Shown: positions 31,640-38,229 of the stretch, piece by piece | How positions within the stretch are numbered: the stretch's first letter is position 1 | Layout: each line of letters starts with the position of its first letter | Virus record (IMG/VR): IMGVR_UViG_2974637922_000001 | Span: 132,843-196,842 of that record | DNA from: a virus | Taxonomy: Duplodnaviria > Caudoviricetes | Direction: 5' to 3' (one strand) | DNA: 64,000 bases | The notes under the pieces: model-generated | Told to the model about the DNA's origin: nothing | The model's input: only the letters and a program-made list of their open reading frames with translations | The model's database searches: none | Translations under genes and position numbers: made by a program

Positions 31640-33955
31640 ATGGCATTTAAGATTAATGGCGTAGTACGCATTGATAATAGTGGCAACGGTTTTCTGGGAA
31701 TTGTAACCGCTACCGACGCTAATATCACAGGAGTTCTCACTGCCACTGAGGTGGATGCGAAAGTATCATCTAAGGCAATAACTGAACAAACAGATGGAAC
31801 CGTAGATGATGTAACTGGTGCAGATGAACTATTACTATTAGATGCTGAGACTGGTGGATTACTAAGAGTATCAATAGATGAGTTCGTGCAGGGTTCAGGC
31901 ATTGGAACTCTAGTAACGGACTTTGATAACTTAACTGTTACTGGTATCACAACCGTTGCCACCCTCAAAGGTATTGGATCTAATAACATCAGTGTAGGGA
32001 GCACACTTTCCTTTGCTGATGGTACAGAGATCATCATGGGTGACTCTGGTGACTTCAGTATTCATCATGATGGTGACCATACTTACCTAGATGAGACGGG
32101 GCAGGGTAATCTAAAACTCCGTACAAATAACTTTAGAGTAACAAATATAGCAGAAACAAAACCAGCTATTACAGCACAGGTTACTTCTGGTGTTGAGTTG
32201 TATTTTGATGGTAATAAGAAGATAGAAACTACAAATACTGGTGTTCTTGTGAGTGGTATGCTCACTGCTGATAGATTAAGATCAGGTGATATTGCTGCTA
32301 GAAATGTAATCACACTGGGTATTACCACTATCCAAGATCATTTGGAAGTGAATGATAGTACTGGTTCTGGTACCGAATATAATCTTAATGTTAAGACTAA
32401 TGGTAGTTCTACCTTTGGTGTCTTAGGTAATGGAAATATTCTACTTGGAAACAGTTCCGGTGCTCCATTCATGGCGACGAATGATCACCACGCAACTTCC
32501 AAGAAATATGTAGATGACGCCATCGCTGATGATCCTAGCGGTGCTGCGGCTTGGGGTACTGTTGCCTCAAACAACAGTGGTGGTGCTAGTAGTATTACTT
32601 TACTGGGTGGGATGAATGTAGCAAGTGTCACAGCTGGCACATCAAATGCAAAAGGAAATTTCGTGGTTACATTTGCCACTCCAATGCCTGATGCAAACTA
32701 TTCAGTAACCGCTAGTTATAATAACGCTAATGTTAACACATATGGGGATATTAGTGTAGGTTCTAAAACAGCAAGTAGTTTTGAGGTTCAAACTTTTGAA
32801 TCATCAAATCTGCCTGACTGGCAGGGGTTTGGATTTGTCGTCTTCGCAACCAATGCCCTCCCACCAACAGGCGGCACCGGCACAGATAGCTGGGCAGCTG
32901 TAGATCAAACTATTGTTAATGGTGCTTGTAATGTACCGGCAAGTTTTAACGTTGCTTCAGTAACTAGAACTGGACTGGGCCTATATGACGTGGTGTTTAC
33001 AACGCCGATGCCTACTGATAAATACAGCGTTGTGGGTAGCATTACCCGAGACACATTTTCTAATTTCTGTACTTCTAATAGGTCGGCTACTGGCTTTACA
33101 GTAAAGAACACCTATCAGAATCGCGATAACGGTGCTACTCAGTATGCAGACAACCCTTTCTCCTTCACCGTCAACGCCACCAACGCAACGCTACCTGAAA
33201 CTATTACAACGGATCAGTTTACCTCTGCGTTTAATGCTCCTACCTTCAAAAACATTCTCATCAATGGAAATCTGACAATTAATCAACGTAATGTTAATAT
33301 TACATCTGTTTCTGCCGGTGAATATGGTGAAGATCGTTGGAAAAAGACATTAGGTGGGATGACGCAGATTGTTGAAGATGGTAATTATCTACCAAGTTCT
33401 TCTTACACTTTATCTGGAACAGGTATTACTACAACTACAGCAAACTCACCTGCTTCTGGTGACTGGGACATCTCAACAACCTTTGGTGATATTCCTATTA
33501 CTGCTCGTTCTATCCAACTTGAATATGGCAACGTAGCCTCAGCGTTTGACTTGAGACCGGTTGGGGTGGAGCTGAGTTTGTGTCATCGTTATTTTTATAG
33601 AATAATAAGGTCCGTCAACAGCACTCCTTTTACTATTAAATCTAACAGTAACTCAAACGACATTCCCGCTGTAGGCTCGATCGAGTGTTCTTACAGTGTA
33701 GTTTTTCCAGCCATAATGAGAACCCAACCTACTGGCTCAAATTACAGTAACAACGGAGCAAATAACTATTTGGCAATTCCAGGATATAGGGCTATTACTA
33801 ACTCTTTTCTGGCAAGCGATGTAAGTTTTTCATACGCATCCTCTGAAGCCGCAGTAATTTTAGTGGATACGACCTTAGGGAGCATCGGAGTAGTTCAAGG
33901 AGCTGCGTTCCCGCTAGAGGCGGCTTTTAGTTATGACATCGACGCCGAACTTTAA
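31640..33955 (+). CDS. Tail fibre / receptor-binding-like protein
   Basis: CATAAATA late promoter; HATSKKYVD, duplicated NVASVT..VTF.TPMP..YSV domain, KNILINGN..INQR..DRW, ELSLCHRYF. Confidence 0.8.
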   Translation: MAFKINGVVRIDNSGNGFLGIVTATDANITGVLTATEVDAKVSSKAITEQTDGTVDDVTGADELLLLDAETGGLLRVSIDEFVQGSGIGTLVTDFDNLTVTGITTVATLKGIGSNNISVGSTLSFADGTEIIMGDSGDFSIHHDGDHTYLDETGQGNLKLRTNNFRVTNIAETKPAITAQVTSGVELYFDGNKKIETTNTGVLVSGMLTADRLRSGDIAARNVITLGITTIQDHLEVNDSTGSGTEYNLNVKTNGSSTFGVLGNGNILLGNSSGAPFMATNDHHATSKKYVDDAIADDPSGAAAWGTVASNNSGGASSITLLGGMNVASVTAGTSNAKGNFVVTFATPMPDANYSVTASYNNANVNTYGDISVGSKTASSFEVQTFESSNLPDWQGFGFVVFATNALPPTGGTGTDSWAAVDQTIVNGACNVPASFNVASVTRTGLGLYDVVFTTPMPTDKYSVVGSITRDTFSNFCTSNRSATGFTVKNTYQNRDNGATQYADNPFSFTVNATNATLPETITTDQFTSAFNAPTFKNILINGNLTINQRNVNITSVSAGEYGEDRWKKTLGGMTQIVEDGNYLPSSSYTLSGTGITTTTANSPASGDWDISTTFGDIPITARSIQLEYGNVASAFDLRPVGVELSLCHRYFYRIIRSVNSTPFTIKSNSNSNDIPAVGSIECSYSVVFPAIMRTQPTGSNYSNNGANNYLAIPGYRAITNSFLASDVSFSYASSEAAVILVDTTLGSIGVVQGAAFPLEAAFSYDIDAEL

Positions 33956-33997
33956 ACTCCTTAATTCCTTACAATAGAACTATCACACTTTAAAACT

Positions 33998-34240
33998 ATG
34001 GCTTATACTTACGCATTTACTGATGCTGATAACAACAGCATCAAACGCACTGATGAAGACGGTAACGTTGCATTCGTTCCAGTCGCAGAAGGCAATCGTG
34101 ACTACGCAGAATATCTATCCTCTGGTATCACTGCCGATGCATACGTAGCACCACCGGAACCAGAACCCCTTACTCCAGAAGAGAAACTAGCCAACTCTGG
34201 ACTGACAGTTGATGAGCTAAAGAGTTTGTTAGATCTATAG
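33998..34240 (+). CDS. Tail-fibre-associated small protein (chaperone-like)
   Basis: VP...NRDYAEYL, LTPEEKLANSGLTVDELKSLL; directly follows the fibre gene. Confidence 0.65.
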   Translation: MAYTYAFTDADNNSIKRTDEDGNVAFVPVAEGNRDYAEYLSSGITADAYVAPPEPEPLTPEEKLANSGLTVDELKSLLDL

Positions 34241-34241
34241 G

Positions 34242-34312
34242 TGTGACAGCCAGCAAACTGGCACAGGGGGTTGGCACCCTGGGGAATCTGTGTTATAATA
34301 AACACATAAATA
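34242..34312 (+). promoter_or_regulatory. psbA promoter region: palindrome + early promoter + late promoter
   Basis: TGTGACAG..ACTGGCACA; TTGGCA-17-TATAAT; CATAAATA. Confidence 0.7.
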
Positions 34313-34457: not shown

Positions 34458-35537
34458 ATGGCTTCAACACTTACACGCCGTCAAGGCGCATCTATCTGGG
34501 ATCAGTTTTGTTCCTGGGTCACATCAACCAACAATCGTCTTTACGTCGGTTGGTTCGGTGTTCTAATGATTCCTACATTGTTAGCCGCAACTGTATGTTT
34601 CATTATCGCTTTCGTGGGTGCTCCCCCAGTGGACATCGACGGAATCCGTGAACCAGTAGCTGGTTCACTCATGTATGGAAACAACATCATCTCTGGTGCA
34701 GTTGTTCCTAGTTCAAACGCAATCGGTCTACACTTCTACCCAATCTGGGAAGCAGCCACACTCGACGAATGGCTCTACAACGGTGGTCCTTTCCAACTAG
34801 TTGTCTTCCACTTCCTTATTGGTATCTACGCCTATATGGGACGTGAGTGGGAACTCTCTTATCGTTTAGGTATGAGACCTTGGATCTGTGTAGCATACTC
34901 TGCACCAGTTGCAGCAGCTTCAGCAGTATTCCTAGTCTATCCTTTCGGTCAAGGTTCATTCTCAGACGCGATGCCCTTGGGTATCTCTGGAACATTCAAC
35001 TACATGTTGGTCTTCCAAGCAGAACATAACATCTTGATGCACCCCTTCCACATGTTGGGAGTCGCAGGTGTCTTCGGTGGTTCATTGTTCTCAGCGATGC
35101 ATGGTTCACTTGTTACCTCTTCACTTGTCCGTGAGACAACTGAAACTGAGTCACAGAACTATGGTTACAAGTTCGGCCAAGAAGAAGAGACCTATAACAT
35201 CGTGGCAGCCCATGGCTACTTCGGTCGTTTGATCTTCCAATACGCTTCATTCAACAACTCACGCTCACTCCACTTCTTCTTAGCCGCATGGCCAGTTGTG
35301 GGTATCTGGTTCACCGCACTTGGTGTTTCCACAATGGCATTCAACCTCAATGGTTTCAACTTCAACCAGTCTGTTATCGACGGACAAGGTAGAGTATTGA
35401 ACACCTGGGCGGATGTTCTTAACAGAGCTGGTCTTGGGATGGAAGTAATGCATGAGAGAAATGCACACAACTTCCCACTAGATTTGGCAGCAGCTGAGTC
35501 CACACCAGTGGCTCTAATTGCACCATCTGTTGGTTGA
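34458..35537 (+). CDS. psbA: Photosystem II D1 protein (uninterrupted)
   Basis: [39 protein letters not shown]. Confidence 0.99.
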
Positions 35538-35559
35538 TCACTCAACCTGTGGTATGATA

Positions 35560-35588
35560 AAGGGGGACTTCGGTCCCCTTTCTTTTTC
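35560..35588 (+). terminator. Rho-independent terminator with a UUCG tetraloop
   Basis: GGGGAC-TTCG-GTCCCC followed by a T-rich tract. Confidence 0.8.
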
Positions 35589-35607
35589 TTTTGTAATGTA
35601 AAGTTTT

Positions 35608-35838
35608 ATGTCTCACGATCTAATCGAATTGCTCACTTACTATGTGATCGGTGGTGCCCTTATCATAGGACCACCCGCTATCTTTCTCATCATTGCTATG
35701 ATGGCAGCACTCCAAAATACGAAAGGTCGCATGGTTGGATACAAAGATCACAAAACTTATGGTGATTCATCCATCTACGATCCGGCACCAAAATTGCCAG
35801 TAGATCAAACAAAATTCTTCTTGGAACTTAACAACTGA
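35608..35838 (+). CDS. Small membrane protein between psbA and psbD
   Basis: 76 aa with a TM segment. Confidence 0.7.
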   Translation: MSHDLIELLTYYVIGGALIIGPPAIFLIIAMMAALQNTKGRMVGYKDHKTYGDSSIYDPAPKLPVDQTKFFLELNN

Positions 35839-35849
35839 GGTAAACAAAA

Positions 35850-35897
35850 ATGACGACAAGTACACTTACAACACCACAAAGGGGGTGTATTCGTTAG
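35850..35897 (+). pseudogene. psbD: Stranded 5' remnant of the original psbD
   Basis: GAGG RBS, then MTTSTLTTPQRG (cyanophage D2-type N-terminus), breaking inside the Trp codon (TG|T) and stopping. Confidence 0.7.
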
Positions 35898-35967
35898 TCT
35901 GGAAGCAACTGACACAAATACCATAGGGGTATTGGCAAAAACCAGATATCTGTGTTATACTGGGTAG

Positions 35968-36150
35968 GGATAGGTAGAGTATTCAGGGGTGAAAAGACTA
36001 CCTATACCCCCCAATAATACACAGCAATAATACACAGAGAATACTTATAATAAAACCCCTACGGGGTTTGCCTACGGGCAACTGAAAGAGATATATGTAT
36101 AGGGGCAACTGATATAACTGCTATGCCCGCTACGCCAACCTGAAAAACCA
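35968..36150 (+). ncRNA. Putative structured non-coding RNA
   Basis: Downstream of TTGGCA-18-TATACT; no ORF; ATAGGTAG/CTACCTAT stem and two cUACGg hairpins. Confidence 0.4.
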
Positions 36151-36157
36151 CAAAGGT

Positions 36158-36234
36158 AGTATAACACCAGAAGTAGTTATTGGCAACTATCTAGAAACTA
36201 TCTAGTTGCCGCAGGGGTTTTTATGCGTTATAAT
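36158..36234. promoter_or_regulatory. Back-to-back divergent sigma-70-type promoters
   Basis: Minus: TTGCCA(36186-36181)-17-TATACT; plus: TTGCCG(36206)-17-TATAAT; the -35 boxes form the arms of a GGCAACTA..TAGTTGCC inverted repeat. Confidence 0.6.
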
Positions 36235-36257
36235 AATAATACCCTGAATACAAAACT

Positions 36258-36422
36258 ATGAGTATGGTGAAGCAACACCTGTGGCAAGAGCAACACGCCC
36301 CTACCGCAGAAGATATAGAAGAGTATGAGTTATACTGCTACTACCTAGATATGGTAGAGCGGTATAATACTACTGCCCCTATGAAGTTTTTAGAAGAAGT
36401 GTTTAGTGAAGAGGTAGAGTGA
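36258..36422 (+). CDS. Small acidic protein coupled to the HNH gene (not in ORF track)
   Basis: MSMVKQHLWQEQHAPTAEDIEEYELY..., 54 aa; GTGA overlap with the HNH start. Confidence 0.6.
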   Translation: MSMVKQHLWQEQHAPTAEDIEEYELYCYYLDMVERYNTTAPMKFLEEVFSEEVE

Positions 36423-37051
36423 AGCAACTAATACAAAACCCAAACAACTATACAATAACCCCAGAGGGGGTTGTATTATCTAACAAATACAAACGCCCCC
36501 TATCACTACAATATGATAGAGGGGGCAACCCCTTCTACCAGATAAAACGCCTAGGGGGTGGTAGTAGGCAACAACTATACCAAAACAAACTACTACCCCA
36601 ACACTACCCCTTCTACTGGATAAACCAGTTAGAAGAGGGTGAGGAGTGTAGGAATATAACTTATATCTACCAACACCCTATGCCCCCCTACAAATACTTT
36701 ATAACCAACAGAGGTAGGGTTTGGAGCAACCTATCTAATAGGTTTTTAGAAACCCAACACAACTATGGTAGGGGTGGATACTATGATAGAATAACCATAG
36801 ATACACACTCTGTGAATACACACTGGTTGGTAGGTAGATACTTTTTAGAGAACTGGTATGCTGGTTGCTTTGTTTGCCATAGGTGTGAAACTCTACCCTA
36901 CCCAAACAGAAACTACCCTACTAACCTGTGGGTAGGCAACAACAGCAGCAACCAGTTAGATAGTGAGAGCAAGCAGAGAACACTACACAGAAGAAAGAGA
37001 GTGAGTGAGTGTATGAGAGGCAACCAAAACTGGCGGGGCAAACACAAATAA
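36419..37051 (+). CDS. NUMOD4/HNH homing endonuclease (I-HmuI-like)
   Basis: Two NUMOD4-like starts (NYTITPEGVVLS; YFITNRGRVWS), HWLVGRYFL, VCH..N..NLWVG..SN. Confidence 0.8.
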   Translation: MKQLIQNPNNYTITPEGVVLSNKYKRPLSLQYDRGGNPFYQIKRLGGGSRQQLYQNKLLPQHYPFYWINQLEEGEECRNITYIYQHPMPPYKYFITNRGRVWSNLSNRFLETQHNYGRGGYYDRITIDTHSVNTHWLVGRYFLENWYAGCFVCHRCETLPYPNRNYPTNLWVGNNSSNQLDSESKQRTLHRRKRVSECMRGNQNWRGKHK

Positions 37052-37126
37052 CACACAAACTCTGTATAACTGATCTACTACGCTTTCTAACCTAGCACTT
37101 TGTTGCTCTGGACTAACAGGGAGTTA

Positions 37127-37150
37127 TGTGTTATAATATAAACATAAATA
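37127..37150 (+). promoter_or_regulatory. Dual early/late promoter for psbD
   Basis: TGTGTTATAATA..CATAAATA, same architecture as the psbA promoter. Confidence 0.65.
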
Positions 37151-37170
37151 CATATAACTTCACAAAAACT

Positions 37171-38229
37171 ATGACTGCTTCACTTGCACCCCCAAAAAGC
37201 AACGGGGGTTGGTATGATATTTTAGAAGACTGGTTGCAGAAAGATAGGTTTGTCTTTATTGGCTGGTCTGGATTACTACTTCTTCCCACTGCTTATCTTG
37301 CCATTGGCGGCTGGCTTACTGGCACAACTTTTGTCACAAGTTGGTACACCCATGGTCTTGCTTCTTCCTATCTTGAGGGTGCTAACTTTCTCACGGCGGC
37401 TGTCTCGACTCCTGCTGATGCTATGGGTCATTCTCTTCTTCTACTTTGGGGTCCTGAATCTCAGGGCGACTTCCAGCGGTGGCTCCAACTTGGAGGGCTT
37501 TGGTCCTTTGTTGCTCTCCACGGTGCCTTCGCTTTAATTGGATTCATGCTTCGTCAGTTTGAACTGTCACGACTCATTGGTATCCGTCCCTACAACGCTA
37601 TTGCATTCAGTGGTCCTATCGCTGTATTTGTCAGTGTGTTTCTTCTATACCCACTAGGTCAATCTTCCTGGTTCTTTGCCCCCTCCTTTGGTGTGGCAGC
37701 AATCTTTAGATTCCTATTGTTTCTTCAGGGTTTCCACAACTGGACACTGAACCCCTTCCATATGATGGGAGTTGCTGGTATACTAGGTGGAGCACTACTA
37801 TCTGCAATCCATGGCGTTACTGTTGAAAATACCCTATATGAAGATGGAGAACAGAATAACACCTTCACTGCGTTCGATTCCACCCAGGAGGAAGAGACCT
37901 ATTCGATGGTTACTGCGAACCGCTTCTGGTCGCAAATCTTCGGGGTTGCGTTTAGTAATAAGCGTTGGCTTCACTTCTTTATGTTGTTTGTTCCTGTCAT
38001 GGGTCTTTGGGTCTCAAGTATTGGGATCATTGGGCTTGCTCTTAATCTTCGTGCTTATGATTTTGTGAGCCAAGAGATTAGAGCAGCAGAAGATCCTGAG
38101 TTTGAAACTTTCTACACAAAGAACATCCTTCTTAACGAAGGACTAAGAGCATGGATGGCACCTGTGGATCAACCACATGAGTCATTTGTATTCCCAGAAG
38201 AAGTTCTACCTAGAGGTAACGCATTGTGA
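37171..38229 (+). CDS. psbD: Photosystem II D2 protein (352 aa) with a divergent N-terminus
   Basis: [35 protein letters not shown]. Confidence 0.98.

Follow-up and report, generated by a model that had tools for sequence, protein, structure and literature searches.

HNH cassette and duplicated psbD start

We analysed the interval between the photosystem genes psbA and psbD in a 64,000-nt stretch of viral DNA (IMG/VR record IMGVR_UViG_2974637922_000001; the window), in which the start of psbD, the gene for D2, is present twice and a putative HNH endonuclease gene, ORF210, lies between the two copies. The interval is 98.4% identical over its full length to KJ019152 and belongs to the Synechococcus phage ACG-2014f type (Kyanoviridae, Atlauavirus), a myovirus. 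We consider intronless homing with replacement of the gene's 5' end, aimed at psbD codons ~13-35, to be the likely explanation of this arrangement. What the sequences show is the anatomy of the locus, an empty site, the occurrence of the same insertion site in two backgrounds, mosaic psbD alleles, a nuclease assignable to an HNH family by profile and fold, and purifying selection on its gene.

The limits of the element were mapped by comparison with relatives that lack the HNH gene, as an earlier reading of this DNA (the original prediction) had proposed. Contigs of two marine metagenome studies join position 35887 directly to position 37243 through 31 other nucleotides, which encode the canonical D2 stretch WFDVLDDWVKR, and the flanks of these empty-site contigs differ from the window by only 3 letters over ~600 nt. 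With breakpoints at 35887/37243, the element is, on sequence comparison, the segment 35888-37242, in which the cassette is followed by a promoter and the first 24 codons of psbD, and it replaces 31 nt. Since the contigs join these two positions, the element appears to supply both the promoter and the replacement start (37171..37242, + strand), much as first proposed, with 24 codons measured against the empty-site allele in place of the ~26 estimated then. A wider delimitation, in which the whole tract from 35888 to ~37393 was taken as foreign, was dropped, the empty-site contigs giving 35888-37242 as the minimal difference.

On the left side, the ribosome-binding site and start codon were found as described (GAGG at 35837-35840, ATG at 35850), and the short psbD start reads MTTSTLTTPQRG, followed by CIR and a stop, in a 15-codon open reading frame (ORF; 35850-35897). 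Its nucleotides 1-38 (35850-35887) are those of the native psbD of sister isolates, and this identity stops abruptly at 35887, where the remnant had been thought to break off. The remnant itself is longer, as 35888-35903 match decayed psbD codons ~30-35 at 13 of 16 positions without a gap, an alignment score reached by 4 of 1000 shuffles. By comparison with sister isolates, the left copy thus occupies 35850..35903 (+ strand), and psbD codons 13-24 are absent from it. After an A-rich spacer of 1283 nt (36% A), in good agreement with the ~1.3 kb given originally, psbD starts anew at 37171 and is complete (37171-38229, 352 amino acids (aa), Pfam Photo_RC E = 6e-72). The part beyond the element-borne codons (37243..38229, + strand) was compared with the allele of the cassette-less isolate C9 and its like, from which it differs by 30% up to ~37393 and by 3% to ~37570, being nearly identical beyond. 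The psbD 5' region is therefore directly repeated on the two sides of the cassette, and its left copy is decayed and dead. The replacement 5' end, promoter included, is that of a natural donor psbD; the proposal of 'synthetic' first codons had to be abandoned.

Recoded psbD codons 13-24

The differences between alleles are concentrated in a recoded patch within the replacement start (37212-37242, + strand). Between the window and the empty site, the patch differed at 14 of 31 positions and the flanks at 3 of 597 (p = 1e-17); in the comparison with isolate C16, these numbers were 7 of 18 and 3 of 367 (p = 1.5e-8). Codons 13-24 differ between all allele classes: the carrier has LQK, cassette-less but converted alleles have LLR, the metagenome copy L011 has Y for W, and the empty site and C9 are canonical. 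The five D2 substitutions on which the original prediction had been built are real and unusual. Replacement of F by Y, of D by E, or of K by Q or L at these positions was seen in none of the 120 nearest D2 N-termini, where the 120 are 90%-cluster representatives from a collection of 5.8 billion proteins, in which rare variants within clusters are invisible. To judge from these comparisons, codons 13-24 are hypervariable, and the patch alters residues at which the 120 other D2 N-termini do not vary.

The hypervariable patch lies directly 3' of a stretch of 41 nt (37186-37226, the normally variable D2 N-tail) that is identical between the window and L011, in cassettes that are otherwise 83% identical (chance ~5e-4). 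The constraint on these 41 nt may act on DNA or RNA rather than on protein.

ORF210 and the HNH family

ORF210 (36419..37051, + strand, 210 aa) was assigned by profile and fold as an I-HmuI-like HNH endonuclease with a NUMOD4-type N-terminal sheet followed by the HNH site. A HMMER search returned 122 relatives, 61 of which were taken into a family alignment; Pfam recognized NUMOD4 in 42 and HNH_3 in 1 of these 61 homologues, and PHROG HNH families matched ORF210 itself weakly. In the alignment H154, E157 and N169 do not vary, and N178 is almost always kept (≥90%). All four residues are present in ORF210 and in 10 of 10 close variants, and they align to the HNH stretch of I-HmuI, whose structure (1U3E) was matched by the family profile with E = 1.3e-15. 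Folding of the single sequence gave a predicted local distance difference test (pLDDT) score of 32 and was unusable, so that an AlphaFold model built with the alignment was used instead (pLDDT 90.7). The sole significant Foldseek match of this model was 1u3e_M (E = 5e-5, probability 1.00, 116 aligned columns). The ratio of nonsynonymous to synonymous substitution rates (dN/dS) was 0.25-0.31 against the copies in L011 and L004, which are 80-83% identical.

Based on the family profile, the I-HmuI fold, the conserved residues and these dN/dS values, ORF210 is predicted to be a diverged but maintained I-HmuI-like HNH endonuclease, its membership following from profile and fold and not from Pfam models. 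The NUMOD4-HNH label given at first is thus borne out through the Pfam matches of relatives, the profile and the fold, but not by a direct Pfam match of ORF210. The gene is free-standing, with its own start coupled to the preceding ORF54 and its own promoter-like site, and lies outside any intron; it is the sole member of its HNH family in this genome. At least eight genome-size records carry the gene in its protein cluster, some of them not reached by the DNA search.

The element in other backgrounds

Three contigs (L020, L021 and L022) carry a cassette copy that is 90% identical to that of the window. In L020 and L022, psbA is 80% identical (in L020, its 3' end), the psbD start is 96% identical, and the cassette occupies the same psbD position; sequence divergence marks the L020 background as a different phage lineage. 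On the left side of L020, a psbD promoter 86% identical to the region of the outward promoter of the window (P3, described below) is followed by a psbD start reading MTTSTLTQQRG and then by decayed psbD codons 25-30 and 34-35, and the shared cassette begins after the hexamer TCTGGA. Codons 13-24 are gone from the left copies of both the window and the L020/L022 backgrounds, by different deletions, and the patch was presumably lost from the dead copy because it was being cut there.

The L011 copy, 83% identical, keeps together ORF54, the HNH gene, the -10 box and a psbD start that includes WYDILDDYLLR, and cassette and recoded start are likewise linked in L020-L022. Within ACG-2014f, the cassette was found on two left-flank haplotypes (window and C25). 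A search of the genome of the window for other cassette copies gave none, the only matches being of promoter-box size (20-24 nt), and in IMG/VR no match was obtained with a protein pattern or with DNA patterns for the P2 region and the psbD N-tail.

Among the nine ACG-2014f records listed, one (C25) bears the cassette, five (the C9 type) are naive and have the canonical N-terminus WFDLLDDWIKR, and three (C16, C24 and US4) are cassette-less but converted. In the latter, the native start passes into the recoded stretch at nt 18 (C16 and C24) or at nt 39-41 (US4). Three breakpoints coincide at nt 38/39, namely the junction in the window, the crossover in US4 and the boundary between C9 and the empty site. 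A test for co-conversion showed tracts of differing lengths that begin at nt 38/39, and mosaicism in the neighbouring genes too. We infer that C16, C24 and US4 are products either of conversion without the cassette, as a by-product of repair, or of cassette loss.

Proposed mechanism and alternative explanations

In the proposed mechanism, the mobile unit would consist, in this order, of the dead left psbD 5' copy, a promoter with a hairpin RNA, a second promoter with ORF54 and the HNH gene, an outward promoter and the recoded psbD 5' end. During mixed infection, the HNH protein would nick or cut the psbD of a cassette-less genome within nt ~38-105, and the break would be repaired from the cassette-bearing genome. 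Cassette and recoded codons would be copied in jointly, or sometimes the recoded codons alone, which would give rise to the cassette-less converted alleles. The psbD of the carrier would be spared by the recoding of its recognition stretch, even at otherwise invariant D2 residues, and the dead left copy by deletion of that stretch. As a complete start and a promoter come with the element, psbD would remain unsplit and need no splicing. Cleavage by ORF210, its target in psbD, the immunity of the carrier and the transmission advantage are predictions of this model.

Several observations weigh against homing with 5'-end replacement. ORF210 itself had no Pfam match at E <= 1 (NUMOD4 PF07463, HNH_3 PF13392), and its dN/dS against L020 was 0.69. 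The recoded N-terminus had been expected to be tied to the HNH gene, and the converted isolates C16, C24 and US4, which have no cassette, carry nearly the same one, which goes partly against the original prediction. Their patch reads LLR and not LQK as in the carrier, so that a simple deletion from the sampled carrier would not have produced them; they would also allow a recoded allele older than the insertion. The position of the putative break is ambiguous between nt 38/39, the recurrent tract boundary, and nt 105, the shared cassette junction. Moreover, at the DNA level it is the tract of the 'naive' C9 allele (nt 39-225) that stands apart, with a best outside match of 77%, compared with 83% for the tract of the carrier and 86% for the remainder of the gene, which leaves it ambiguous which allele is ancestral. 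Finally, psbA and the adjoining tail-fibre gene are also mosaic in these isolates, and the neighbourhood therefore recombines even without the ORF210 nuclease.

These observations are shared in part by an explanation that needs no active nuclease. If the psbA-psbD region were a general recombination hot spot, the cassette could have arrived once by illegitimate recombination, with the nuclease an inactive or irrelevant passenger and the psbD 5' variants ordinary imported patches. The block-wise mosaicism of psbA and the tail-fibre gene in the same isolates, the recoded N-terminus in cassette-less genomes, the apparently imported C9 tract and the putative nature of the nuclease activity of ORF210 would all fit. 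We nevertheless regard this passive origin as unlikely. A phage whose psbA is only 80% identical has the insertion at the same point, again with a decayed left copy, the three breakpoints fall together at nt 38/39, and the differences are extremely localized to codons 13-24; in addition, the catalytic residues and moderate purifying selection have been kept across copies 83-90% identical, and exactly the patch is missing from both dead left copies.

It is less probable still, and in our view improbable altogether, that the HNH protein is active but has a target other than psbD, that is, another role or a distant cut site, and merely resides beside the gene. Free-standing phage endonucleases can cut away from their own gene (review PMC2988022), and the psbD target of ORF210 is a prediction. 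The recoded patch is linked to the cassette in every copy seen, however, and this genome holds a single member of the HNH family. A search of the cassette for a copy of the putative psbD target, as an operator-like site would present, gave none (score 11 against a shuffle mean of 10.2), so that nothing of this kind points to another binding role.

A last alternative, which we consider scarcely credible, is that the 1.3 kb form a self-splicing intron that encodes an endonuclease; splicing would join the 38-nt start in frame to psbD at 37212 and yield a US4-like protein. Rfam found no intron at E <= 10 on 35400-37500 and only chance microRNA-type matches. The second psbD copy is equipped with a conserved promoter, a start codon and a D2-like N-tail of its own, the last being used as coding sequence in C16 and C24. 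What flanks the insert is not two gene halves but the psbD 5' end in duplicate, codons 25-35 being decayed on the left, and the 5' exon would end in G instead of U. The description of the element as an intronless, free-standing HNH cassette inside psbD was supported by the comparison of genomes.

Relation to known systems

Free-standing nuclease genes, co-conversion of flanking markers and gene-splitting insertions are established in T4-like phages, as are promoters for downstream genes within or after the nuclease gene (PMC2988022). The psbD cassette resembles SegF, SegG and MobE of these phages in its free-standing nuclease, its varying presence among close relatives, the possible co-conversion of its flanks, a target-side allele that differs in the carrier, and promoters of the downstream gene that are tied to the nuclease gene (PMC2988022). 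Unlike these three, which lie between genes, it lies inside a reading frame with a duplicate, recoded 5' end, and it has three promoter-like sites, a probable small RNA and a conserved small partner ORF. A free-standing nuclease gene inside a coding region is also found in mobE in nrdA of phage Aeh1 and mobA in T4 gene 60/39 (PMC2988022). The host genes of these two are split into two polypeptides that reassemble, whereas psbD stays whole because the element supplies it with a new start, a dead stub being all that remains of the old one.

The psbA intron with F-CphI is established as a homing system for S-PM2. It shares with the psbD cassette the psbA-psbD interval, a free-standing nuclease and a photosystem gene as target, the psbD target being our prediction. 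F-CphI is, however, an Endo VII-type enzyme unrelated to ORF210; it targets psbA, and its carrier is protected by the intron, whereas the psbD cassette has no intron and its protection would come from recoding. Comparison of ORF210 with F-CphI and with the 209-aa ORF upstream of psbD in S-PM2 gave no similarity, in line with the original distinction between the two systems. The L020 background carries both kinds of nuclease, with an F-CphI-like gene after psbA (E = 6e-22).

I-HmuI of Bacillus phage SPO1 (PDB 1U3E), a nickase, is the closest structural counterpart found here, with a likeness in profile and fold over the N-terminal sheet and the HNH site and a pairwise identity of ~24%. I-HmuI is intron-encoded, whereas ORF210 is free-standing, has ~70 extra N-terminal residues and is without the I-HmuI C-terminal domain in the alignment.

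We propose only tentatively, at somewhat less than even confidence, that these features add up to a distinct form of homing, '5'-end replacement homing', without intron, intein or gene splitting. In this form, a cassette would bring a promoter and recoded first codons, the old start would become a stub that loses the target by deletion, and change would be forced at invariant D2 residues in natural cyanophage populations; the hairpin RNA and ORF54 would serve as regulators of the nuclease, and the whole would be a self-contained four-part module widespread in marine phages. The literature searched held no description of a psbD-associated HNH gene or of 5'-end replacement. If true, replacement of 5' end and promoter would be a third harmless route into a coding region, besides introns or inteins and gene splitting. 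It would also link selfish DNA to the evolution of a photosynthesis gene in ocean viruses, in which the recoded stretch alters otherwise invariant D2 residues. Gregory et al. (2016) reported a weak signal of positive selection in psbD of a 221-kb cyanophage lineage and suspected an artefact (PMC5112629); the psbD cassette element may explain that signal. Their population study of these isolates makes no mention of endonucleases (PMC5112629). The co-isolated ACG-2014f phages on Synechococcus WH7803 provide, with their naive, converted and cassette-bearing alleles, a ready test system for homing, for co-conversion and for the life cycle of a homing endonuclease in a marine virus.

Contents of the cassette

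The cassette proper occupies ~1.2 kb between the left psbD scrap and the complete psbD and holds a promoter with a hairpin RNA, ORF54, the HNH gene and an outward promoter. A promoter scan placed the first promoter-like site, P1, with a TG-extended -10 box, at 35932-35961 (+ strand). It is followed by a conserved 5' hairpin (~35962-36010, + strand) and, according to a terminator scan, by a terminator-like hairpin at 36182-36224 (+ strand). Together, these elements (35932-36225) form a probable small RNA. The candidate has a TG-extended TATACT promoter, a hairpin of the GGGTAGG type with a conserved AGGGGT loop motif and then the terminator-like hairpin. The stem is preserved by compensatory changes in a resident intergenic copy of ACG-2014f (L012:1490-1640) and in two distant HNH cassettes (L016:78-170 and L017:286-400). 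No Rfam family matched the motif, which probably represents a small RNA or a 5' leader element that has escaped annotation in marine cyanophages. A segment of 176-191 nt (36006/28-36197/203) is missing from the variants L004 and L011 and from two metagenome runs. This extra segment, within 36006-36203, holds a GC hairpin as well as a TATAAT box and is itself inserted into the inserted cassette.

The second promoter-like site, P2 (36206..36234, + strand), precedes ORF54 and the HNH gene and is conserved in L004 and L011. ORF54 (36258..36422, + strand) encodes a small acidic protein, and its stop overlaps the HNH start by 4 nt; its dN/dS was 0.28-0.35. Acidic ORFs of 51-58 aa that share the motif EEYELY lie directly upstream of the HNH gene and overlap its start in the window, in L016 (198-374) and in L017 (412-567), such that the translational coupling is retained even in relatives 40-43% identical. 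ORF54 may regulate or inhibit the nuclease or form one of its subunits.

The third site, P3 (37109..37137, + strand), is an outward promoter-like site with a TG-extended TATAAT box, homologous to the native psbD promoter of the L020 background. Its -10 box is kept in L004, in L011 and in each of the two L020 copies, and the site would drive the replacement psbD. An outward promoter 3' of the HNH gene was found in L004, L011, L016, L019 and L020, and the set of promoter, hairpin, small ORF, HNH gene and outward promoter looks like a reusable mobile module. In L019 (1-2654), a distant member of the HNH family lies between vWA (cobT-like) and AAA (cobS-like) genes, with consensus-like promoters on both sides and no small ORF.

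Neighbouring genes

To the left of the cassette, psbA (D1; 34458..35537, + strand) is uninterrupted and has no intron, as judged from the ORF list and the annotation of sister genomes. A terminator scan found a terminator-like hairpin 3' of it at 35560-35581. ORF76 (phrog_961, function unknown; 35608..35838, + strand) follows, and psbD begins 12 nt after it in cassette-less isolates. In L020, psbA and the psbD cassette are separated by the F-CphI-like Endo VII gene (L020:250-680), so that one psbA-psbD interval holds two different homing-type nucleases; the called ORF (86 aa) covers the catalytic C-terminal part only and may be truncated or frameshifted. Among the ACG-2014f isolates, psbA falls into at least three haplotype blocks (34458-35537 of the window compared with L002, L005 and L010). 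The 3' module of the tail-fibre gene (window ~33040-34300) has been exchanged among these isolates as well, with a different module in C16 and US39.

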